Numbered from the stretch's first letter, positions 13,266 to 26,183 are shown. The stretch is 64,000 bases of DNA from an uncultured Bacteroidales bacterium (GCA_947175635.1 CAMWNM010000005.1:7253-71252); one strand, 5' to 3'. Notes: generated by a model not told the origin, from the letters alone. Made by a program: numbers and translations.

Positions 13266-14378
13266 TTAAAAGAGTTCGCGATACACTTCGCGAATTTCTT
13301 CTTCGCTCAAGGGAACGTAATTGTTGTTGAGCAGACGTTGCTGGGTTTCCAGCACGCTCTTGGCGAATCCGGCCACTTCCTCGTCTTTCATGCCGTAGGT
13401 GTGAAGCGGATTTTTCTTGATAAGCTTGCCCAGCAGTTCATCCAAGGCATCGTAGGGATCGCCCGTGGTGTGGAGCAACTGTTGCAGATAAGCGTTCAGT
13501 TCCTTGATACGGCCGTTGGGGTTCTTCTTGTTGTAAAGGTGGAAAATGGCGGTATAGAACTGATAGTTGGCTTCTCCGTGGGGAACGTGGTAGTTGCCGC
13601 CCAGCGGATAGCTCAAGGCGTGAACGGCGCCTACGCCGGTATTGCCGAATGCGATGCCGGCAAAATTGCTGGCCATCAGCATATCGCCCAAACGCTCGAA
13701 GCGGTAGTCGGGGCCTTTTTCGGCAATCTTCTGGAATACGTCGATAATGATACGCATCGCTTCCTTGCCCAACGCTTCGGTATAAGGATTGGATTTGGGC
13801 GAAACGAAAGATTCGGTGGCGTGAACCAAGGCGTCAATGGCACTGCAGGCATAGAACTTGAAAGGAAGGCCCTTCAGGAGTTCGGGTACCAGAACAGCGT
13901 CGTCGGCCACGATGGCATCGTCGGCCAGCCCCATTTTGGTATGCAGGCTTACCAATTCGGCAATCGAGATGTTGGTTACTTCGCTGCCCGTACCGCAGGT
14001 GGTGGGAAGGATAACCAGCTGCTTTTCCTTTACGATGGGGATTTTGCGCAAGAAAGCATCGGTAACGTTTTCAACGCCTTTAAGCACAAACAGTTTGCAA
14101 CAGTCGATAACGGTACCGCCGCCCACGGCGACAACGCGGTTGTACTTTACGTTCTTCACGTCCTGAAGAATGGCGTTCATCATGTTGTCGGAGGGTTCGC
14201 CCAAACCGTATTTTTCCTGCATGATGAAATGACAGGGAAGATTGAGCGATTTCATGAAAGGTTCGTAAAGAAATTCGTTCGTGATCACCAAGTCATCCGC
14301 ACCGAGGTTGAATTCCTTGGCGAACGAAGCGAAGTCTTCGAATTGGCTCAGACGAGTCTTCAGCTTGAAAAGTTGCAT
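13266..14378 (-). CDS. 4hbD: NAD-dependent 4-hydroxybutyrate dehydrogenase (iron-type alcohol dehydrogenase family)
   Basis: Nucleotide motif VVAVGGGTVIDCCK and metal-site His cluster AVHALSYPLGGNYHVPHGEAN, together with the operon context. Confidence 0.8.
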   Translation of the reverse strand: MQLFKLKTRLSQFEDFASFAKEFNLGADDLVITNEFLYEPFMKSLNLPCHFIMQEKYGLGEPSDNMMNAILQDVKNVKYNRVVAVGGGTVIDCCKLFVLKGVENVTDAFLRKIPIVKEKQLVILPTTCGTGSEVTNISIAELVSLHTKMGLADDAIVADDAVLVPELLKGLPFKFYACSAIDALVHATESFVSPKSNPYTEALGKEAMRIIIDVFQKIAEKGPDYRFERLGDMLMASNFAGIAFGNTGVGAVHALSYPLGGNYHVPHGEANYQFYTAIFHLYNKKNPNGRIKELNAYLQQLLHTTGDPYDALDELLGKLIKKNPLHTYGMKDEEVAGFAKSVLETQQRLLNNNYVPLSEEEIREVYRELF

Positions 14379-14464
14379 GATATTTAATTTTAGATTTTCA
14401 ATCTACAATGCCTCCACCTTGGCGGAAGTAAAACTTGCTTTGCCTCCGCACTCGGTTCAGTCGT

Positions 14465-15787
14465 TTATTTTTTGAATCTTTTGCTGTATTCTTCTTCCAG
14501 CATGGCGCGGAAGTCGGGATGGGCGATGGCGATAAGCCGCCTGGCCCTTTCCTTGAGGCTGGCGCCTTTGAGTTTGGCCACGCCGTATTCGGTAACGATA
14601 TAATCCACATCGTTGCGGGGCGTGGTTACGGCCGCACCGTGCGAAAGGAACGGCACGATACGGGAGGCTGTGCCTTTGGCGGCCGTAGAGGGCATGGCCA
14701 TGATGGAGCGTCCGCCTTTGGACCAGGCCGCCCCTTTTACATAATCGAATTGTCCGCCGATACCGCTGAACTGCTTCAATCCGATGGATTCGGAATTCAC
14801 CTGGCCCATCAGGTCCACTTCAATACAGGAGTTGATGGAAACCAGATTATCGTTCTGGGCAATCACGCGGGGGTCGTTTACCCAATCCACGGGGCGCATT
14901 TCCACGCAGTCGTTATGGTTGGCGAAGTCGTAGAGTTCCTGGGTGCCCATCAGGAAAGTGGCCACCATCTTGCCGGGCAGCAAGGTCTTCTTGGAACCGT
15001 TGATGACGCCTTTTTTGACAAGGTTTACCACGCCGCTCGAAAACATCTCGGTGTGGATGCCCAGATCATGCTTGTCGTCGAGCGACATCAGCACCGCATC
15101 GGGAATACCGCCGATCCCGAGCTGCAGCGTGTCGCCGTCTTTTACCAAGGTGGAGCAGTTTTTACCGATGGCCAGTTCCACTTCGGTTATCTTGGCCGGA
15201 GGCAGGATGGCCAGCGGCGTATGATTTTCCACGATATAGCTGAATTTGGAAATGTGCATGAAATTATCCCCTGCGATGTAGGGCATATTTTCATTCATTT
15301 CAGCAATGACGATTTTGGCTTTGCGGGCGGCGGGCAACGAGTAGTCGCACGAAATGCCGAAACTGCAATTGCCTTTTTCATCGGGCAGGGATACCTGTAC
15401 AACGGCCACATCTACCGGAAAATATTCATCGAAGAAAGCCGGCACTTCCGAAAAATGGACGGGAATGAAATCCCCCCGGTCTTCGGCCACGGCCGCCCGG
15501 GAGTTACCGCCTACGAAATTGGTGACGTGACGGAAATGTCCCTCGGTTTCAGGCACGAGGTATTCCCCGTTGTTGATGGTGAACATGTGGTAGATCTTCA
15601 CATTGTGCAACCTGTCCATCTGGCGCAACATTTCCTGCGGCACCACACCCGGAACGCCTGCGGCATGCCCGAAAACGACGTTGTCATTGTCTTTAATCGC
15701 TTTTACCGCCTCTTCTACGGTAACGAAGTTCCCTTCCTTTTTCAAATCCATGGTATGACGTGTTTTTATTTTCTTCAACACAAGCAC
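14465..15787 (-). CDS. cat2: 4-hydroxybutyrate CoA-transferase (acetyl-CoA hydrolase/transferase family)
   Basis: 440 aa with the family motifs LQLGIGGIPDAV and FSGIGGQFDYVKGA, together with the operon context. Confidence 0.8.
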   Translation of the reverse strand: MLVLKKIKTRHTMDLKKEGNFVTVEEAVKAIKDNDNVVFGHAAGVPGVVPQEMLRQMDRLHNVKIYHMFTINNGEYLVPETEGHFRHVTNFVGGNSRAAVAEDRGDFIPVHFSEVPAFFDEYFPVDVAVVQVSLPDEKGNCSFGISCDYSLPAARKAKIVIAEMNENMPYIAGDNFMHISKFSYIVENHTPLAILPPAKITEVELAIGKNCSTLVKDGDTLQLGIGGIPDAVLMSLDDKHDLGIHTEMFSSGVVNLVKKGVINGSKKTLLPGKMVATFLMGTQELYDFANHNDCVEMRPVDWVNDPRVIAQNDNLVSINSCIEVDLMGQVNSESIGLKQFSGIGGQFDYVKGAAWSKGGRSIMAMPSTAAKGTASRIVPFLSHGAAVTTPRNDVDYIVTEYGVAKLKGASLKERARRLIAIAHPDFRAMLEEEYSKRFKK

Positions 15788-15798
15788 CCGCCCGCTGT

Positions 15799-16095
15799 CT
15801 ATTCCTTACGGGCGTGCATCAGTTTTTTGGCAAAAGCCAGCAAATCCGGATCGGTTTCGTTGATAAGGTACACCCGACCCGTTTCCGGGATCTCTTCCCG
15901 AAGTGTCTTTTCGATTACCTCCTCAAGGGTAATCTGCGCCGCCGGGCAAGTCCGGCACGCACCTTGGAATACCAGCCCCACATCCGTTCCCTTTATCTCC
16001 TTGATGCGGATATCTCCGCCGTGTTCCAATAAAGAAGGACGGATCCGCTCTTCTATCAGAGAGCGAACCCGACCTTCGAATTCAGGGTTGTCCAC
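15799..16095 (-). CDS. NifU-like (Nfu C-terminal domain) Fe-S protein
   Basis: 98 aa. RIRPSLLEHGGDIRIKEI...FQGACRTCPAAQITL carries the Nfu-type CxxC motif. Confidence 0.8.
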   Translation of the reverse strand: MDNPEFEGRVRSLIEERIRPSLLEHGGDIRIKEIKGTDVGLVFQGACRTCPAAQITLEEVIEKTLREEIPETGRVYLINETDPDLLAFAKKLMHARKE

Positions 16096-16100
16096 AGAAA

Positions 16101-17585
16101 TTACTTTTTAGCGGGCTTTGCAGGCCAGTTATCTTTCGATACGTCGATTTTGGCAATCTTGCGGGCCAATTCTTTCTTGGCTTCGAGGTTGCCTTGACGG
16201 GCAATCATGATACGTTGGGCCTGCGGAGAACCGGCACCGTGCAGCGATTCGGTACGATAACCTACCGCGGCGGTACCCAAGGTCATGTTTTCGATCAGGC
16301 GAAGCACACGCATTCTGTTTTCGGTAGCCGCACCGGTGGCACCCTTGAAGTATTTTTCAACATAAGGACCGGTTTCCTTGGAACGGAGATCCTGCTGCGA
16401 AGGCATGGTTACCATCAGACCGCCGGCGATATCTTCGGCCAGACGGGCGATTTCGTAAGGATAACGGGTTACGTTCTGTTTGCAGACATTGGCAAGGAGC
16501 AAATCGATCTGATAGTTGCCGGCCGGCATCTTTACCCCTTCGGCCGAACAGGCGATACCGCAGGCATAGAGGGTTTCGTTGAGGTGAATCATTTCGATGA
16601 GCTTGTCTTTGATATGGCTGGCTTTGGGCACACCGTTGTAGTCGGCGGCCAAAGCGGCGGCACCGATCAAGACATCGCCCACACCCACTTTACATCCGCC
16701 GTAAGACTGACGGTGATAACCGGCGAAGCGTTCCACCATCATGCCGGCAAACTGGTATTCCTTGCACATGAAGATACGTTCGTTGGGAACGAACACGTCA
16801 TCGAACACCACCAAGGCTTCGTGACCGCCGAACTGGGAGTTTCCGAGGTCGATTTCGGCATCGGGTTCCATCTTGCGGGTATCGCAGGACTGACGGCCGT
16901 AGATCATGAACACGCCCTTGGCGTCGGAAGGAATGGCGAAAGACACGGCGTAGTCTTTGTCTTCTTCTCTCATGGCGATGGTGGGCATGATCAGGTGTTC
17001 GTGGCTGTTGATGGCACCGGTCTGGTGGGCCTTGGCACCGCGGACCACGATACCGTCGGGACGTACTTCGGTGATGTGTACGAACAAATCGGGATCTTCC
17101 TGTTGCGAGGGAGCTAGACCACGGTCGCCTTTGGGGTCGGTCATGGCACCGTCAACGGTGAGGTCGTTCTTCTGAACGAACTTCATGTATTCGGTAAAAC
17201 GCTTGTGATATTCGGTTCCGAGCGCCTTGTCCATTTCGTAAGTGGTGGAGAAGATGGCGTTGAAAGCGTCCATCCCCACGCAACGTTGGAAGCAGGCGGC
17301 CGTTTTCTGTCCCATCAGACGCTGCATCTTCACTTTCTTGATAAGGTCTTCGGTGTTTTGGTGCAGGTGGCAGAAACGGTTCACTTTTTCTCCGATAAGG
17401 GGCGAATAGGCCGTCATCAGATCTTCGTATTCTTTTTTCTGCGCCAATTCGTAGGTCATGGCCACCGAATTCAAAGACGGGCGGATAATGGGGTGGTTAA
17501 CGGGATCTTTCACTCTCTCTCCGAACAGATAGACCTTCAGGTCCATTTTCTGGAGGCTCTTGATGTACTCTTCTGCTGTCATCAT
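16101..17585 (-). CDS. abfD: 4-hydroxybutyryl-CoA dehydratase / vinylacetyl-CoA delta-isomerase
   Basis: 494 aa with an HpaB-like fold. Candidate [4Fe-4S] ligands are in AACFQRCVGMD (Cx3C) and HRQSYGGCKVG (Hx6C), as in AbfD. Confidence 0.85.
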   Translation of the reverse strand: MMTAEEYIKSLQKMDLKVYLFGERVKDPVNHPIIRPSLNSVAMTYELAQKKEYEDLMTAYSPLIGEKVNRFCHLHQNTEDLIKKVKMQRLMGQKTAACFQRCVGMDAFNAIFSTTYEMDKALGTEYHKRFTEYMKFVQKNDLTVDGAMTDPKGDRGLAPSQQEDPDLFVHITEVRPDGIVVRGAKAHQTGAINSHEHLIMPTIAMREEDKDYAVSFAIPSDAKGVFMIYGRQSCDTRKMEPDAEIDLGNSQFGGHEALVVFDDVFVPNERIFMCKEYQFAGMMVERFAGYHRQSYGGCKVGVGDVLIGAAALAADYNGVPKASHIKDKLIEMIHLNETLYACGIACSAEGVKMPAGNYQIDLLLANVCKQNVTRYPYEIARLAEDIAGGLMVTMPSQQDLRSKETGPYVEKYFKGATGAATENRMRVLRLIENMTLGTAAVGYRTESLHGAGSPQAQRIMIARQGNLEAKKELARKIAKIDVSKDNWPAKPAKK

Positions 17586-18942: not shown

Positions 18943-19440
18943 ATGGAAAGGAAAATAACATTCAGAAAGGCAGAAAAAGAAGACGCAGGCCTGATCCTTA
19001 AGTTTATCCGTCTGTTGGCTGAATACGAGCGTATGGCAGACGAGGTGACGGCGACCGAAGAACTTCTTCGGGAATGGATTTTTGAAAAACATGCCGCCCA
19101 GGTACTGTTTGTGATGTGCGAGGGCAAGGAAGTAGGTTTCGTCCTTTACTTTTTCAATTTCTCCACGTTCACAGGCCGTGCCGGGCTGTATGTGGAAGAT
19201 GTTTTCGTGTTGCCCGAATGGCGCGGACAAGGTATCGGCAAACGTGTGTTCTCCCATCTTGCCGGCATCGCCCGTCAGATGGGGTGCGGCCGCATGGAAT
19301 GGATTTGCCTTGACTGGAATGCCCCGAGCATCGCCTTCTACCGTTCCTTGGGGGCCGCTCCGATGTCGGACTGGACGGTTCACCGTCTTACCGAGGCGCA
19401 ACTGCCTTTGGTGGCAGGGGAGGAGAGTGGCCAGGCCTGA
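18943..19440 (+). CDS. GNAT family N-acetyltransferase
   Basis: 165 aa with the acetyl-CoA motif [14 protein letters not shown]. The overall pattern resembles diamine/spermidine acetyltransferases. Confidence 0.8.
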
Positions 19441-19595
19441 TACCTTCGCCGTTTCTGAACGGCCGGGTGAAGTTCTTTCCTTGGTCCCGATGCGGGCAAG
19501 ATACTTTCCCCCTGAAAATTCGTAACTTCGCGCATTGTGCATGCCAGTTCCGGATAAACCGACAAGCCGTTTTCAAAAATATACAATCATTTGAG

Positions 19596-20756
19596 ATGGA
19601 AAACAATAAAAGGAAAGCCCTGATTACGGGTGTGACGGGGCAGGACGGCGCTTATCTGAGCGAATTTCTCCTGAAAAAAGGCTATGAGGTGCATGGCATC
19701 AAACGCCGTTCTTCGCTTTTCAATACCGACCGTATCGACCACCTTTACCAGGATCCGCAGACAAAAGACCGTACTTTTGTGCTGCATTACGGCGATATGA
19801 CCGACAGCCTGAACCTTACCCGAATCGTGCAGGAGGTTCAACCCGATGAAATCTACAATCTGGCGGCCATGAGCCATGTGCAGGTAAGTTTCGACACGCC
19901 CGAATATACCGCCAACGCCGACGGCATCGGTACCTTGCGCCTGCTGGAGGCGGTCCGCCTGCTGGGCATGACGCAGAAAACGCGCATTTACCAGGCCTCC
20001 ACTTCCGAACTATTCGGCAAGGTGCAGGAGACCCCCCAGACCGAAAAGACACCTTTCTATCCGCGCAGTCCCTATGCCGCCGCCAAACTCTACGCCTATT
20101 GGATTACGGTGAACTACCGCGAGGCCTACGGGATTCACGCCAGCAACGGCATCCTGTTCAACCACGAGTCGCCGGTTCGGGGCGAGACTTTCGTTACCCG
20201 CAAGATAACCCGCGCGGTCTGCAAGATGGCCTTGGGACTGCAAGACCGGCTCTATCTCGGGAATATGGATTCCAAACGAGACTGGGGACACGCCAAAGAC
20301 TACGTGCGCGCCATGTGGATGATCCTGCAACAGGAAAAGCCCGACGATTACGTTATCGCCACCGGCACCACCACCTCCATACGCGAGTTCGTGGATATGG
20401 CTTTCCGTCAGATAGGCTGTACCTTGTCTTATAGGGGAACGGGTATGGACGAAACCGGTATTCTGGACGCCATCGACAAAGAAGTATTCGTGCAAAAAGT
20501 GGGAGAAGCGTACTACAGGGCTTTCAGCCAGCGTATCGGCAAGGTTCTGGTGGCGGTGGATGCCAAGTATTTCCGTCCCACCGAGGTGGATTTCCTCTTG
20601 GGGGATGCCCGCAAAGCACGGGAGGTATTGGGCTGGAAGCCCGAATACGATCTGGCGGCCTTGGTGCGCGAGATGATGGAAAGCGATATGCAGCTGATGC
20701 GGAAAGACGGATTCCTCAAGGAAAACGGCTATACGATTTTGAATTACTTTGAGTAG
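19596..20756 (+). CDS. gmd: GDP-mannose 4,6-dehydratase
   Basis: [40 protein letters not shown] plus the catalytic YxxxK (PYAAAKLYA). The real start is the ATG at 19596, not the ORF-track start at 19467. Confidence 0.93.
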
Positions 20757-20759
20757 AAA

Positions 20760-21878
20760 ATGAAAAAGACAGACTACAAACTCAAAAAATTGGAAATTAA
20801 AGGTTTCAAATCTATTGCATTTGACAAACCTTTGACTATACAATTTAATGATATCACTATTTTATTAGGCGCAAATGGCGCAGGGAAAAGCAATATCATT
20901 AGCTTTTTCAAAATGTTGGGCTATATGATGACAGCGAAGTTACAGGCATTTATAGCCCAAGCTGGCACAAGTCAAAGATTTCTCCACTATGGCATCAAGA
21001 AGACACCAACATTAAGTGCAGAAATTCGCTTTGAGAACGAAAAAGCAAATTATGGTATTTATCGTTTTCACCTTACCCATGCAGTTCCTGATAGACTTAT
21101 CGTAAATTCTGAAGAAGTTGAACACTATGACAAAGAGAAAAATGTTGACATTATCAATGGTGTTTTAGCATCCAAGTTCAATGAAGCAACATTAAGTCCA
21201 GAATCAAAGTCAGGTACAGAAAAACTTCTGTGGCGGTTGTTAAGTGGTTGTAAAGTATATCAGTTCAGCGATTCCTCTTTATCTTCCCCTATGCGCCAAG
21301 CATCAACTGTCGAATCCGCTCATTATCTACAATCCGAGGCGAATAACCTGTCATCTTTCCTATACTATTTGAGAAACAACTACAAAGACACATATAATAG
21401 AATTGTAGATTACACCAAAAGTGTTACTCCTCAATTTCAGGATTTCTATCTTGAACCTGAAGGTAATTACATCGCTTTGAAATGGATTGATAATTCCGCT
21501 AATGACTATGTGTTTTCCGCAGACCAACTATCCGATGGCTCCATTCGTTTTATCGCATTGGCCACCCTGCTGTTGCAACCCCAAGAAACCATTCCAAACG
21601 TTATCTTAATTGATGAACCAGAGTTGGGCTTGCATCCCTATGCTGTAGATCAATTGATTGAAATGATAAAAGATGCTTCCATGCGTGCCCAAATTATTAT
21701 TTCCACACAATCACCCGCATTGATGGATGGTTTCGATTTAGATGAAATTACAATTATTGAACATGATGGAAATTCCACCATTGCAAGAAAACTGGAATCA
21801 TCTGAATATGCGGAATGGTTAGATGAATATCTACCTAGTGAACTATGGAATAAAAATGTATTAGGAGGGCGTCCATAA
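20760..21878 (+). CDS. ABC/OLD-type AAA family ATPase (AAA_15/AAA_21-like)
   Basis: 372 aa with Walker A LLGANGAGKS (res 35-44), ABC-signature-like LSDGS (257-261), Walker B VILIDEPELGLHP (281-293), and STQSP (315-319) at the H-loop position. Confidence 0.8.
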   Translation: MKKTDYKLKKLEIKGFKSIAFDKPLTIQFNDITILLGANGAGKSNIISFFKMLGYMMTAKLQAFIAQAGTSQRFLHYGIKKTPTLSAEIRFENEKANYGIYRFHLTHAVPDRLIVNSEEVEHYDKEKNVDIINGVLASKFNEATLSPESKSGTEKLLWRLLSGCKVYQFSDSSLSSPMRQASTVESAHYLQSEANNLSSFLYYLRNNYKDTYNRIVDYTKSVTPQFQDFYLEPEGNYIALKWIDNSANDYVFSADQLSDGSIRFIALATLLLQPQETIPNVILIDEPELGLHPYAVDQLIEMIKDASMRAQIIISTQSPALMDGFDLDEITIIEHDGNSTIARKLESSEYAEWLDEYLPSELWNKNVLGGRP

Positions 21879-22579
21879 TGTACGAGAGCAAAGTGATCCT
21901 TAATGTTCTTTGTGAAGGAAAAACAGAAGAAGAATTTATAAAGCACGTTTTGAAGCCGTATTTGCAACCTTTCAATATCATTGCCAAAAGCATCTTATTG
22001 ACAACATCTAGAAAGAAAAATGCCCAAGGTGGCTTGAATAGTTATACTCAAGTACAAAAAGATTTGAGGTTATTGATAGCACAAACATCACATAAAGCTA
22101 ACGAACTGCATTATTTTACTACGATGTTCGATTTCTACAAGCTTCCTAATGACTTTCCTTTATATAAAAGAGCCTCATCCATACATGATGTATACAAGAA
22201 AATAGAAACATTGGAAACCGCCTTTCTTGATGACATCCAACATCCACACTTTATTCCATATATTCAACTACATGAATTTGAGGCATTTTTGTTCTGCGGT
22301 ATCGAACAATTGGCTCAAAAATACAATGAATGCGCCAAAGACATAAGGAAACTCGAAGATGCAGTAAGGGAGTGTAAAGGAAATCCTGAAATGGTAAATG
22401 GGGGAATTTCCACAGCACCCAGCAAACGTATCACTAATATCATAGATAAAACATATCATTACAACAAACCTCAAACCGGCCGAGAAATAACAAAACAAAT
22501 TGGCATCACTAAACTTAAAGAGAGATGCCTCCATTTTTCCGAATGGATAGAGAAACTAGAACATTTGGTGAGGAATTGA
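21878..22579 (+). CDS. DUF4276-like protein, partner of the ATPase
   Basis: 233 aa. ILNVLCEGKTEEEFIKHVLKPYL, FTTMFDFYKLP, IQLHEFEAFLF, APSKRITNII and CLHFSEWIEKL match my recollection of the conserved DUF4276 blocks. Its start overlaps the ATPase stop (TAATG at 21876-21880). Confidence 0.7.
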   Translation: MYESKVILNVLCEGKTEEEFIKHVLKPYLQPFNIIAKSILLTTSRKKNAQGGLNSYTQVQKDLRLLIAQTSHKANELHYFTTMFDFYKLPNDFPLYKRASSIHDVYKKIETLETAFLDDIQHPHFIPYIQLHEFEAFLFCGIEQLAQKYNECAKDIRKLEDAVRECKGNPEMVNGGISTAPSKRITNIIDKTYHYNKPQTGREITKQIGITKLKERCLHFSEWIEKLEHLVRN

Positions 22580-22616
22580 AAGTACTGTCTAATAGAAATC
22601 AAAAAACACCAAAATC

Positions 22617-23318
22617 ATGAAAAAACTTATTGCACTTATATTATTTGCCTTGTGCATTGCTTTCAGTTATGCACAAGAAGCCACAGAAGAAAGAAAAGTC
22701 ACAACCTTTCTTGGTATTCCTGTTGATGGAAGCAAGTCAGAAATGATACATAAATTGCAAAAAAAAGGGTATCAGTATGATGAAGATCTGGATATGTTGA
22801 CGGGAGAATATAATGGAGAGGATGTTATGATTGGTATTCAGACCAACAATAACAGAGTATGGCGACTTGGGATAATAGATGTTGCTCGCAGAAGTGAAGG
22901 ACAAATTAAAATACGGTTCAATAAACTCTGCGAACAATTCTCTAATAACAAACGATATAAAAACACCACAGATCAGACAATTTCGCAATTTGAGGATATC
23001 TCTTATGAAATGGCTGTTCACAATAAACAATATCAAGCTCTTTTCTTCCAAGATGCTCTACCTGAATTGGATTCAGTGGGATTGTATACTGAGCTTCGAA
23101 AGAAATATACTCCCGAACAATTGGATAATCCTACAGAAGAACAAGAACAAAAGATTTTTGATATCAAGATGGATTATATAAATGATGCATTTCAGAAGAT
23201 CTCGGGATTTATAAACAGATCTGTATGGTTTACCATTATTAATGAAAAATATGGAAAATATTACATCGTAATGTATTACGAAAACGGCTATAACGAAGCC
23301 AATGGTGAAGATTTGTAG
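22617..23318 (+). CDS. Orphan secreted protein (signal peptidase I type)
   Basis: 233 aa with signal peptide MKKLIALILFALCIAFSYA|QE. It is AT-rich like the two preceding genes. I recognise no domain. Confidence 0.6.
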   Translation: MKKLIALILFALCIAFSYAQEATEERKVTTFLGIPVDGSKSEMIHKLQKKGYQYDEDLDMLTGEYNGEDVMIGIQTNNNRVWRLGIIDVARRSEGQIKIRFNKLCEQFSNNKRYKNTTDQTISQFEDISYEMAVHNKQYQALFFQDALPELDSVGLYTELRKKYTPEQLDNPTEEQEQKIFDIKMDYINDAFQKISGFINRSVWFTIINEKYGKYYIVMYYENGYNEANGEDL

Positions 23319-23330
23319 ATAAGGGGAACA

Positions 23331-24443
23331 ATGAACAAGCAAGATAAAATCTACGTAGCCGGCCACAAAGGCCTTGTGGGCAGTGCCATTTGGCGCAACT
23401 TGCAATCCAAGGGCTATACCAATTTGGTGGGACGTTCCCATGCCGAGCTGGATTTGATGGATACAGCGGCCACCTGCCGTTTTTTTGACGAAGAGAAACC
23501 CGGTTACGTTATCGTGGCCTCCGCCAAGGTGGGCGGCATCCAGGCAAACAGCGTCTACCGGGGGCAGTTCATCTACGAGAACCTGATGATTGCCTGCAAC
23601 ACCATCCATCAGGCCTATACCCACGGAGTCAAGAAACTGCTGTTCTTAGGCAGTTCGTGCATCTATCCGCGTCTGGCGCCCCAACCTATGCCCGAAGACT
23701 GCCTTCTGACATCGCCCCTCGAATACACCAACGAACCCTACGCGCTCTCCAAGATTGCGGGCCTGAAGATGTGCGAAAGCTACAACCTCCAGTACGGTAC
23801 CGATTTCATCTCGGTGATGCCCACCAACCTCTACGGGCCTTACGACAACTTCAATCTGGAGACCTCCCACGTTCTGCCCGCTATCCTGCGCAAGATGTTC
23901 TTGGGCAGATGCCTCGAAACGGGCAACTGGCAATCGCTCCGCGCGGATTTGAATGTGCGCCCGGTGGAAGGCGTGAACGGCACGGCATCCGAAGAAAAGA
24001 TTCTCGACATTTTGGCTAAATACGGCATCCGGACCACGGATGTGCAAGAAAACAAACCTTGCGGCGTGAAAGTGGAAATATGGGGAAGCGGCAAGCCGAT
24101 GCGGGAATTCCTTTGGAGCGAAGACATGGCGGATGCCTGCGTGTATCTGCTCGAAAACGTTTCCTTTGCCGACCTGAGCCAAGGCATGGGCAAGGAAATC
24201 CGCAACACCCACATCAATATCGGCACGGGCAAGGAAGTTACTATTGCGCAGACGGCACAACTGATCAAACAGGAAGTGGGTTTTGAAGGCGAACTATTCT
24301 TCAATGCCGGGAAACCCGACGGAACGCCGCGCAAACTGTTGGATGTTTCCAAACTCCACGCACTCGGTTGGCGTCACAAGGTGGAATTGGAAGAAGGCAT
24401 CGCACGCCTGGCGCAGTGGTACTTGAACAGCCTCGGCAAGTAA
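23331..24443 (+). CDS. fcl: GDP-L-fucose synthase (GDP-4-keto-6-deoxymannose epimerase/reductase)
   Basis: KIYVAGHKGLVGSAI Rossmann motif, YxxxK in PYALSKIAG, and SVMPTNLYGPYDNF, typical of Fcl/WcaG. Confidence 0.9.
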   Translation: MNKQDKIYVAGHKGLVGSAIWRNLQSKGYTNLVGRSHAELDLMDTAATCRFFDEEKPGYVIVASAKVGGIQANSVYRGQFIYENLMIACNTIHQAYTHGVKKLLFLGSSCIYPRLAPQPMPEDCLLTSPLEYTNEPYALSKIAGLKMCESYNLQYGTDFISVMPTNLYGPYDNFNLETSHVLPAILRKMFLGRCLETGNWQSLRADLNVRPVEGVNGTASEEKILDILAKYGIRTTDVQENKPCGVKVEIWGSGKPMREFLWSEDMADACVYLLENVSFADLSQGMGKEIRNTHINIGTGKEVTIAQTAQLIKQEVGFEGELFFNAGKPDGTPRKLLDVSKLHALGWRHKVELEEGIARLAQWYLNSLGK

Positions 24444-24485
24444 ACGGCCCCGACAGGGTTCCCCAATCAGAAAAATTCTCCGGAT

Positions 24486-26183
24486 ATGGAACAGACGATA
24501 AGACAACGGGCGGAATTGTGGACCAAACCGCCTTACGACGAAAAGACACGCCTTGCAGCCCAAGCCCTCTTGGAAGGCAACGAAACCGAATGCGCCGATG
24601 CGTTCTACCGCGATTTGGAATTTGGAACGGGCGGCTTGCGCGGCATCCTTGGAGTCGGTACCAACCGCATGAATGTGTATGTAGTGGCTTTGGCCACACA
24701 AGGGTTCGCCAATTACTTGAGAAGGCAATGTGAGGCTGAAAATCTGCAACCTGCCGTGGCTGTTTCTTACGACTGCCGCAACGGGAGTTCGGAGTTTGCC
24801 CTCACCACCGCCAAGGTGTTTGCCGCCAACGGTTTTAAAGTGTATCTTTTTACGGCCATGCGCCCCACGCCGGTGCTTTCGTTTGCCGTGCGGCATTACG
24901 GTTGTTGCGGTGGGGTGATGATTACCGCCAGCCACAATCCCAAGGAATACAACGGTTATAAAGCTTACGGCAAAGACGGCGGCCAGCTGGTGAGTCCTCA
25001 CGACAAGAACGTGATGGCCCAGGTGGCGGCGATAAAAGGGCTTTCCGAGGTAAAGATGCAGGGCGGAGAGGCGAATATCGTATATGTGGATGAAGAAGTG
25101 GACAACGCCTATCTGGAAAAGGTCTGCGCCCTCTCGCTGGACAGAGAGTCGGTAAAGCGACAGAAAAGACTTAAAATCGTTTACACCCCCCTGCACGGCA
25201 CGGGCATGACGATGGTGCCGCGCGCCTTGCGCCGCTGGGGATTTGAAAACGTGCTCTGCGTGCCCGAACAGATGGTTCCCGACGGAGATTTCAGCACCGT
25301 GGCATCGCCCAATCCCGAAGAAAAGGCCGCCATGCAACCGGCACTTGACTTGGCCGCGCGCGAGAATGCCGATCTAGTGATCGCCACCGATCCCGATGCC
25401 GACCGCGTGGGTGTTGCCATCGCCGACGGGAAGGGCGGGTTTGTTCTGCTCAACGGCAATCAGACCGGTTCGGTATTGGTGCATTACCTGTTGCGCAAGT
25501 GGAAGGAAAACGGCCGGCTGTGCGGCCGGGAGTATATCGTGAAGACCATCGTCACCACCGAACTGATTAAGGAAATGGCAGTCAAGAACGGCGTGGAATG
25601 TTTCGATGTGCTTACCGGTTTCAAGTATATCGCCGAAGTGATCGGCAGGCTGGAAGGAAAGAAAACCTTTATCGGTGGCGGCGAGGAAAGCTACGGTTAT
25701 CTGGCCGGAGAGTTCGTGCGCGACAAAGACGCCGTGACAGCCTGCTGTCTGATTGCCGAGATGGCAGCTGAGGCGGCCTGCAAAGGTGAAAGTTTCATGG
25801 ATATCTTGTGTGGATTATACCGTGAATACGGTTTCTATCGCGAATCTTTGGTTTCGCTGAGCAGGAAAGGGCAGAGCGGAGCGGAGGAGATAAAGGCGAT
25901 GATGGCCGGTTTCCGTCAGCATCCGCCCCGAATCATCGGTGGAGAAAAGGTAACTGAAGTCCGCGATTACAAGCAAGGTTTTGAAGGCCTGCCGCCTTCC
26001 GATGTATTGCAGTTCTTTACCGAAAAAGGCAGTAAGGTTACAGTGCGTCCTTCCGGCACGGAACCTAAGATAAAGTTTTATTTCGGCTTGAAATTTCCTT
26101 GGCGGCCGGATCGGGACTATGCTTCCCAAGAGGCCGAAGCCGCCTTGCAGGTCGATAGCATCCGAAAAGATTTGGGGATATGA
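24486..26183 (+). CDS. Phosphoglucomutase/phosphomannomutase family phospho-sugar mutase
   Basis: 565 aa with the active-site Ser motif ITASHNPKEYNGYK and FGTGGLRG near the N-terminus. Confidence 0.88.
   Translation: MEQTIRQRAELWTKPPYDEKTRLAAQALLEGNETECADAFYRDLEFGTGGLRGILGVGTNRMNVYVVALATQGFANYLRRQCEAENLQPAVAVSYDCRNGSSEFALTTAKVFAANGFKVYLFTAMRPTPVLSFAVRHYGCCGGVMITASHNPKEYNGYKAYGKDGGQLVSPHDKNVMAQVAAIKGLSEVKMQGGEANIVYVDEEVDNAYLEKVCALSLDRESVKRQKRLKIVYTPLHGTGMTMVPRALRRWGFENVLCVPEQMVPDGDFSTVASPNPEEKAAMQPALDLAARENADLVIATDPDADRVGVAIADGKGGFVLLNGNQTGSVLVHYLLRKWKENGRLCGREYIVKTIVTTELIKEMAVKNGVECFDVLTGFKYIAEVIGRLEGKKTFIGGGEESYGYLAGEFVRDKDAVTACCLIAEMAAEAACKGESFMDILCGLYREYGFYRESLVSLSRKGQSGAEEIKAMMAGFRQHPPRIIGGEKVTEVRDYKQGFEGLPPSDVLQFFTEKGSKVTVRPSGTEPKIKFYFGLKFPWRPDRDYASQEAEAALQVDSIRKDLGI

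Follow-up and report, generated by a model that had tools for sequence, protein, structure and literature searches.

We analysed a 64,000-nucleotide stretch of DNA from an uncultured Bacteroidales bacterium (GCA_947175635.1, CAMWNM010000005.1:7253-71252; hereafter the window), in which a three-gene islet (20757-23330) lies within a GDP-fucose operon, between gmd and fcl. All genes of this region are on the plus strand. The upstream anchor, gmd (GDP-mannose 4,6-dehydratase; 19596-20756; Pfam GDP_Man_Dehyd, 3e-151), ends with a TAG stop and encodes protein MDE6493809.1; the proteins of the window include MDE6493806, -809, -811 and -814. A spacer of three nucleotides, AAA (20757-20759, read directly in the sequence), separates gmd from gene A (20760-21878), which encodes a 372-aa ATP-binding cassette (ABC)-type ATPase (AAA_21/AAA_15/SMC_N) of the HEC-01A type. 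The stop of gene A overlaps the start of gene B (21878-22579; 233 aa, a DUF4276, Toprim-like putative nuclease of the HEC-01B type) as TAATG, which suggests that B is probably translationally coupled to A. After a further spacer of 37 nt comes gene C (22617-23318; stop TAG), a variable passenger that encodes a predicted secreted protein of 233 aa. A 12-nt spacer, ATAAGGGGAACA, leads to the downstream anchor, fcl (GDP-L-fucose synthase; 23331-24443; Pfam Epimerase, 3e-54). This spacer and the first 15 nt of fcl together form the right junction (23319-23345), which co-segregates with the islet. The tight junctions reported by the original prediction, a note made from the sequence alone, are thus found again on rereading (3 nt after the gmd stop and 12 nt before the fcl ATG).

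The first two genes of the islet match, over their full length, both profiles of HEC-01 in PADLOC (Hma-embedded candidate 01; Payne et al.), an identity that the original prediction had missed. Gene A matches HEC-01A (PDLC04175) at 1.4e-122, with residues 6-372 aligned to profile positions 4-362 of 363, and also the Pfam families AAA_21 (1.8e-27), SMC_N (6.6e-16) and AAA_15. Its Walker A (GANGAGKSN), signature (LSDGSIRF) and Walker B (ILIDEPELGLHP) motifs are intact and invariant across 16 homologs. In the TQSP motif (residues 317-320; 21708-21719), a glutamine replaces the usual H-loop histidine in all 16 aligned members. Among solved structures, the gene A sequence matches SMC, AriA, PtuA and OLD chains. 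Other PADLOC profiles (i.e. AriA, AbiLi, Old, GajA, mad3 and NsnB) match gene A far more weakly than HEC-01A does (e.g. AriA at 7e-27), and NCBIfam MAD3 reaches 95 bits against a cutoff of 420. We therefore rejected filing the pair under PARIS, MADS, Menshen or AbiL, because the corresponding profile matches are partial and far weaker than those to HEC-01.

Gene B matches HEC-01B (PDLC04188) at 2.9e-73 over its full length and Pfam DUF4276 at 2.5e-49, and no other Pfam family. It carries the invariant motifs LCEGxTE, FTTMFD, QxHExE, TAPSKR and CxHF, with invariant acidic residues at E13/E17, D85, D92 and E133/E135. A search of the gene B sequence against solved structures returned spurious coiled-coil matches only, and no match was found to the PADLOC AriB profile or to DUF4435. 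The AlphaFold2 (AF2) model of gene B (pLDDT, the predicted local distance difference test score, 91) has its best matches among Protein Data Bank (PDB) folds in the C-terminal (Toprim) region of Xanthomonas OLD (6njv/6njx), and this match is weak (E = 4e-3, probability 0.96, template modelling score 0.36-0.39). DUF4276 has been assigned to the Toprim superfamily, and homology to Mad4 has been described for it (PMC12065111).

Gene C is of a different kind. An N-terminal signal peptide is predicted; no Pfam match lies above threshold, DUF6705 appears below threshold only, and searches of PADLOC, NCBIfam and PHROG gave no match. Its AF2 model (pLDDT 88) has no significant fold match in the PDB, and gene C may represent an undescribed fold of secreted Bacteroidales protein. 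Homologs number 3235, mostly of ∼225 aa and from Bacteroidales. The Barnesiella homolog, like that in another group of metagenome contigs, is chromosomal, unlinked to A-B and preceded by a hypothetical gene of 136-142 aa; the Barnesiella intestinihominis copy (L124:6001-6684) is present on 859 contigs. Exact-protein look-ups of fcl and gene C returned no match.

The islet differs sharply in composition from its surroundings. Its G+C content is 35.5%, compared with 52.5% in the remaining window, which corresponds to z = -13 relative to the other 2574-bp windows (0.524 ± 0.013, minimum 0.493). G+C at third codon positions (GC3) is 0.33, 0.34 and 0.30 in A, B and C, and 0.70 in both gmd and fcl; an index resembling the codon adaptation index lies at 0.44-0.52 in the islet genes and at 0.66-0.77 in the genes that flank them; and tetranucleotide frequencies of the islet correlate with those of the remaining window at r = 0.23 (0.86 ± 0.04 for other windows, minimum 0.67). 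The markedly AT-rich block had originally been recognized from hand counts of G+C (19/60 at 20821-20880 and 34/60 at 20641-20700), which are exact on recount, and the G+C, codon and tetranucleotide profiles, once computed, all show a sharp discontinuity.

Marks of mobility are missing, as the original prediction had stated. Scans revealed no tRNA in the whole 64-kb window, no integrase or transposase domain in genes A-C or in the genes called up to ∼6 kb away in both directions, and only chance-level short repeat matches flanking the islet; the islet thus shows none of the marks of an integrative element or genomic island (i.e. a recombinase, a tRNA or att target, or direct repeats). The description of genes of foreign composition wedged precisely between gmd and fcl in the absence of mobility genes is therefore upheld. 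Gene A has no match among 2.9 million viral contigs and the gene B profile has two, the phage records searched contain no match to the module, and a plasmid search returned homologs at ≤38% identity only. We rejected a phage or plasmid origin of the module because it is nearly absent from viral collections and its plasmid homologs are distant. One of the two viral matches is an IMG/VR contig that carries an A-B pair (L137:547-2375; B 51% identical) adjoining unannotated reverse-strand genes, among which an HU-like protein and what may be a terminase large subunit were recognized by eye; going by this contig, phages or prophages may now and then carry A-B.

A compositional break that falls exactly at gene boundaries favours a recent, private horizontal insertion, i.e. 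a foreign three-gene fragment that landed here and is under domestication. Related lineages tell against it. The closest homologs of gene A in a search of 5.8 billion proteins are 97, 89, 80 and 75% identical, and all four occupy the gmd|fcl junction of a syntenic locus. The four further lineages (L087, L095, L096 and L098), in which gmd is 89-95% and fcl 86-95% identical to the window at the protein level, share the 2-3 nt gap at the left junction. Wherever the contigs reach, the synteny extends to HpaB/AbfD upstream and to the phospho-sugar mutase gene (PGM) downstream, with CvpA, ABC and MlaE genes further downstream in L096 and L098 only. The synonymous divergence (dS) of gmd, fcl and pgm between these lineages and the window is 0.4-1.5. 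The same arrangement thus occurs in at least four further lineages, which, together with the strain polymorphism within the species described below, overturns the earlier view of an unusual, single domestication event. Sharing of the junction among related lineages implies that the arrangement is old or has been exchanged repeatedly within the clade.

The islet genes are AT-rich in every lineage (G+C 0.34-0.43, flanks 0.49-0.60). The original prediction had linked an ancestral arrangement to relatives that carry the same genes with host-like composition; the genes are indeed present in the relatives, but their composition is AT-rich and not host-like. The lineages also differ in gene content: the C protein is 233-234 aa long in three of them and 192 aa in L087, while L098 lacks C and its gene B overlaps fcl by 4 nt. 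Several additional genes were observed at these loci, i.e. a reverse-strand 315-aa gene between B and C in L095 (L095:8948-9895), an HTH_3 + Gp49 (HigB/HigA-like) pair upstream of gmd in the same lineage (L095:4958-5579) and an AAA_14/DUF4143 ATPase gene inserted upstream of gmd in L087 (L087:1996-3186).

Divergence across the islet is mosaic. Between the window and L087, dS is 0.59 for gmd, 0.43 for fcl, 0.20 for A, 0.90 for B and 1.40 for C; between the window and L095, it is 0.59 for gmd, 1.04 for A, 1.64 for B and 0.31 for C. Gene B is saturated in every comparison, and the same mosaic appears in four-fold-site identities and in the sliding-identity profile. Some islet segments were swapped between lineages after these split, and other alleles are older than the splits. 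Relative to the neighbouring housekeeping genes, parts of the islet are younger and others much older. The ratio of non-synonymous to synonymous divergence (dN/dS) is 0.06-0.09 in A, 0.07-0.22 in B and 0.16-0.20 in C, and these values indicate that all three genes are functional and under purifying selection.

These data also bear on the idea that A, B and C are ancestral, native genes of the operon whose low G+C content is kept by selection (e.g. for low expression). In its favour, each of the five related lineages seen has the genes at this position, all three genes are under purifying selection, and the intermediate islet GC3 of 0.50-0.53 in L098, the host with the highest G+C content, fits partial drift to host composition. 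However, A, B and C disagree in dS both among themselves and with the genes on either side, with A younger than its flanks relative to L087; C is absent or shortened in some lineages; the islet is replaced in conspecific strains; and distant Bacteroidota have gmd and fcl directly adjacent. We regard native ancestry as very improbable.

Conspecific contigs, found by their identical gmd protein, carry either the same islet (L083 and L085/L086) or different cargo (L081 and L082). The flanks of L081 and L082 are 99.2% identical to the window and homology is interrupted over 20757-23345, with breakpoints at 20756/20757 and 23345/23346. Between them lies a cargo of 987 bp (L081:7162-8148, L082:7162-8146) with a host-like G+C content of 0.52. 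It has three parts: a gene on the reverse strand that encodes an FGE-sulfatase (SUMF1-like) domain (290 aa in L082; the L081 call is 210 aa), a canonical Bacteroidetes -7 motif (TATATTTG) that lies ∼50 nt upstream of the fcl ATG, and an altered 5' end of fcl. The N-terminus of Fcl changes with the cargo as well: it reads MNKQDK in the window and begins with MNK at all islet-bearing loci, and reads MEKNSK in the alternative haplotype. The gmd|fcl junction is thus a strain-variable slot, in which identical flanks enclose different cargo, and in the islet-less conspecifics gmd-fcl is not uninterrupted, since another cassette is present. We looked for raised divergence of the flanks close to the breakpoints, which would point to a long-standing balanced polymorphism, and found none. 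Between the window and L083, the islet has four differences in 2574 nt and the flanks differ by ∼0.8%. The 5' half of fcl (23465-23927) has 27 differences from L083 clustered in ∼460 nt, which looks like a recombination tract.

The existence of conspecifics that lack the islet (L081/L082) and the very low diversity of the islet within the species (the four differences from L083) both speak for a recent, private insertion. Against this stand the cassette with its 2-3 nt left junction in four further lineages with flank dS of 0.4-1.5, the B and C alleles that predate the species splits, and the fact that the islet-less conspecifics hold another cassette and a different fcl 5' end. A private insertion is accordingly hardly credible to us.

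The junction also receives other genes in distant Bacteroidota. A gmd scan of species-representative genomes found nothing closer than ∼73% identity among the matches listed, and it serves as a distant baseline only. An fcl match is present in 61 of the 80 Bacteroidota and other loci listed with gmd, and the gaps are mostly 3-30 nt, which bears out the earlier statement that gmd and fcl as a rule neighbour each other. Inserts of 250-1900 nt occur in about 14 of the 61 listed two-gene loci, often small same-strand genes and mostly of lower G+C content than the flanks. Such repeated insertion indicates that the junction is a recurrent landing place. Judged by N-terminal sequence only, the gap inserts (L007, L013, L015, L022, L029, L038, L039, L040, L066 and L072) appear to include GxxExxY-type, four-helix-bundle (23S-IVS-type), ParE/RelE-like and Bro-N-like genes, a gene for a 388-aa cytidylyltransferase-like protein and a membrane protein gene.

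We then considered how the islet may be expressed. Promoters were searched for by the motif TAnnTTTG, since a sigma-70 scan is uninformative for Bacteroidota. No such motif occurs on the plus strand between 19773 and 24600, so neither the islet nor fcl has one here, and no plus-strand terminator-like site was found inside the islet; an Rfam scan of 19000-24600 gave no match. A non-canonical near-match to the Bacteroidetes -7 box, TTACTTTG, was observed at 20744-20751 in the last gmd codons, 16 nt before the start of A. Absence of a leader and of a recognizable promoter motif suggests that gmd-A-B-C-fcl(-pgm) is probably one transcript, and the islet and the fcl gene behind it most likely depend on read-through from gmd. 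Co-transcription with the gmd-fcl operon, as originally proposed, remains the most economical reading of genes that share a strand, overlap at A-B and are otherwise spaced by 3, 37 and 12 nt, with neither a terminator nor a promoter motif. The phospho-sugar mutase gene (PGM/PMM family; 24486-26183, plus strand; PGM_PMM_I-IV Pfam domains on the syntenic gene) starts 42 nt past fcl and probably belongs to the same transcription unit as fcl. By contrast, a TAnnTTTG motif lies ≤100 nt upstream of A in 11 of 14 contexts in which A-B homologs occur elsewhere.

An alternative explanation is that A-B is a selfish addiction module that holds the operon hostage and brings no defence benefit. A promoter-less insert between two consecutive pathway genes could be lost only if it were deleted precisely or replaced by DNA that brings fcl expression back, and an ATPase-restrained nuclease may punish its loss. 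Several observations are in line with this: HEC-01 gave no defence in assays; AAA_21 carries the Pfam label 'putative AbiEii toxin, Type IV TA system' (toxin-antitoxin); the sole islet-less haplotype seen supplies its own promoter motif for fcl; and other Bacteroidota gmd|fcl gaps hold the GxxExxY-type, four-helix-bundle and ParE/RelE-like genes mentioned above. However, strong purifying selection on A and B across long divergence and the deep allelic diversity of B are more typical of a function under diversifying pressure, and elsewhere the family mostly stands alone and has a promoter motif of its own, i.e. its members are not generally hostage-takers. We therefore regard this explanation as unlikely.

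Outside the window clade, the distant A-B homologs (41-66% identical) provide a different picture, as none of them lies at gmd|fcl. A-B is found inside glycan-biosynthesis clusters in seven of the 14 other contexts, or eight of 15 when the window clade is included, counted with no matched control family. These are (i) after GT1 glycosyltransferase genes (L102 group, L102-L105/L122); (ii) between GT2 and GT4 genes (L108); (iii) after GT4 and GT2 genes (L110/L111); (iv) between a UDP-GlcNAc 2-epimerase gene and a Wzx-type flippase gene (L113); (v) flanked by FdtA-like and DegT genes, with a gmd-fcl pair downstream (L119); (vi) after ADP-heptose genes and before a heptosyltransferase gene (L130/L131); and (vii) in a capsule locus (L132-L135), where in L132 the pair is preceded by PS_pyruv_trans, GT1 and three unannotated genes and followed by a small reverse-strand gene, DUF6261, EpsG and GT2/GT4 genes. 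All glycan-embedded homologs (44-63% identical) run in the same direction as at least the glycan genes next to them. The seven non-glycan contexts are bioD/aroA (L099), upstream of a probable glycerate kinase gene (L106; N-terminal sequence only), among uncharacterised genes (L112), YfhO/GSCFA/murF (L114), two ResB/DhaK contexts (L115 and L121) and TonB receptor/ABC transporter genes (L120). Gene B was undetected in L102 and L104, and a solo A-type ATPase gene with B undetected lies between GT2 and GT4 glycosyltransferase genes in L108 (4977-6095) and L109.

Glycan loci make up a few per cent of a Bacteroidales genome, a share that is exceeded by that of A-B contexts in such loci. One explanation is functional coupling to surface-glycan synthesis, in which expression of the pair tracks the glycan that serves as phage receptor or shield, or in which the pair acts on the pathway itself. 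The eight of 15 glycan contexts and the strand shared with adjacent glycan genes speak for such coupling, and two of these contexts (L130 and L132) were selected solely for the length of their contigs. Nevertheless, Bacteroidales glycan loci are hypervariable, recombination-prone and low in G+C, and the pattern may be due to hitch-hiking. Furthermore, seven of the 15 contexts are housekeeping or uncharacterised, most glycan-embedded copies retain their own promoter motif, an ABC ATPase and a nuclease have no obvious role in sugar chemistry, and the sample is small with no matched control family. Functional coupling thus appears distinctly unlikely to us. A related, tentative proposal is that a Bacteroidales sublineage of HEC-01-type pairs has specialized for surface-glycan and nucleotide-sugar operons and spreads as these loci are frequently swapped by homologous recombination, having given up its own promoter at gmd|fcl; we consider this possible but rather doubtful. 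Searches of the available literature for defence systems within capsule or O-antigen loci brought up no description of such an arrangement, which does not prove its absence.

Taken together, these results lead us to interpret the islet as a HEC-01-type candidate-defence pair with a secreted passenger, which forms an old, recombining cassette at the gmd|fcl junction and is read through from gmd; we assign this interpretation a probability of roughly 60%. The cassette would have resided at the junction for a long time, and homologous recombination, acting through the conserved gmd and fcl flanks as well as between alleles of the islet, would have spread and reshuffled it, rather than mobility functions of its own. 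Absence of mobility genes and near-absence from viral data suggest that homologous recombination is the most likely route of spread. As for function, the ATPase A may respond to a cue of infection and release the putative Toprim nuclease B to cut nucleic acid, with abortive-infection-type phage defence as the possible outcome, by analogy with PARIS, OLD and Gabija only. An anti-phage activity of A-B is thus inferred from related systems.

Several points weigh against this interpretation. A HEC-01 representative protected against no phage tested in Escherichia coli (bioRxiv 10.1101/2024.01.29.577857). The Toprim assignment of B relies on the weak fold match and on published analyses, with no strong structural match. 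A GC3 of ∼0.3 persists in hosts with a GC3 of 0.6-0.7 despite a host dS of 0.4-1.1, and simple long residence does not account for this persistently low GC3. The count of at least five lineages is based on flanking-gene divergence among metagenome contigs, not on a species tree. Finally, the gmd promoter itself was not located by the motif search, and a non-canonical internal promoter may exist within the AT-rich islet.

The islet neighbours are gmd, fcl, the phospho-sugar mutase gene, an acetyltransferase gene and similar genes. Further upstream, on the minus strand (∼13600-17585), genes of Fe-ADH, acetyl-CoA hydrolase/transferase-family, NifU and HpaB/AbfD types are grouped. This cluster looks like a gene set for the conversion of succinate/4-hydroxybutyrate to butyrate, and it is kept upstream of gmd in those relatives whose contigs reach that far.

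Defence genes are usually sought in islands near mobile-element genes, while the candidate described here is hidden in a housekeeping sugar-nucleotide operon. If the association with glycan loci holds, a search rule would follow, i.e. to look for defence genes between consecutive genes of glycan pathways, together with a testable link between capsule or lipopolysaccharide (LPS) expression and intracellular immunity in gut Bacteroidales. If the proposed specialization for glycan operons is true, expression of an immune gene would be hard-wired to the synthesis of glycans that serve phages as receptors or that they have to get through, which would be a previously undescribed coupling of receptor-level and intracellular phage defence. 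If only hitch-hiking is involved, the locus would be an ordinary example of a small recombination-driven variable slot. In addition, native and diversified Bacteroidales alleles of the HEC-01 type are now available as candidates where the E. coli assay failed.

We finally compared the islet with known systems. HEC-01, whose description is that of an ABC ATPase paired with a TOPRIM protein, was discovered inside Hma defence systems (bioRxiv 10.1101/2024.01.29.577857). As in HEC-01, genes A and B of the islet lie next to each other in the same orientation and overlap, and they are embedded in another gene set outside a classical island. Unlike the discovery setting of HEC-01 (i.e. Hma or another defence system), the host locus here is a nucleotide-sugar operon; embedding in Hma is the discovery context and no requirement of the PADLOC HEC-01 model. 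The islet module further differs in having no leader or promoter motif of its own and in carrying a third gene for a secreted protein.

The pair also resembles PARIS (AriA + AriB) and OLD/Gabija in combining two components, an ATPase of the ABC type and a nuclease of the Toprim type (putative here), and ATPases linked to DUF4276 fall together with PARIS in the AAA15/21 tree (PMC11464382). By contrast with PARIS and OLD, the nuclease family here is DUF4276, and not DUF4435 or Toprim_Old. A likeness to Mad3-Mad4 of MADS and to NsnB-NsnC of Menshen is seen in the partial matches of gene A to the mad3 and NsnB profiles, and Mad4 and the C-terminal domains of some NsnC proteins are DUF4276 Toprim domains (PMC12065111). 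Unlike in MADS and Menshen, no methyltransferase, other MADS gene or NsnA is found near the islet.

The site itself is comparable with that of larger variable regions. Chromosomal defence hotspots hold variable cargo between conserved core genes, and mobility genes are not obligatory in them. In a general sense, the islet is like such hotspots in that gmd and fcl enclose alternative cargos among conspecifics and mosaic alleles between species, with no integrase. It is unlike them in that the slot lies inside a two-step biosynthetic operon, spans ∼1-4 kb rather than tens of kb and holds cargo that is probably read through by the operon. In brief, the features that distinguish the islet from the known systems are its promoter-less site in an operon for two consecutive nucleotide-sugar steps, the secreted-protein gene that it has gained and a possible affinity of this A-B subfamily for glycan loci.

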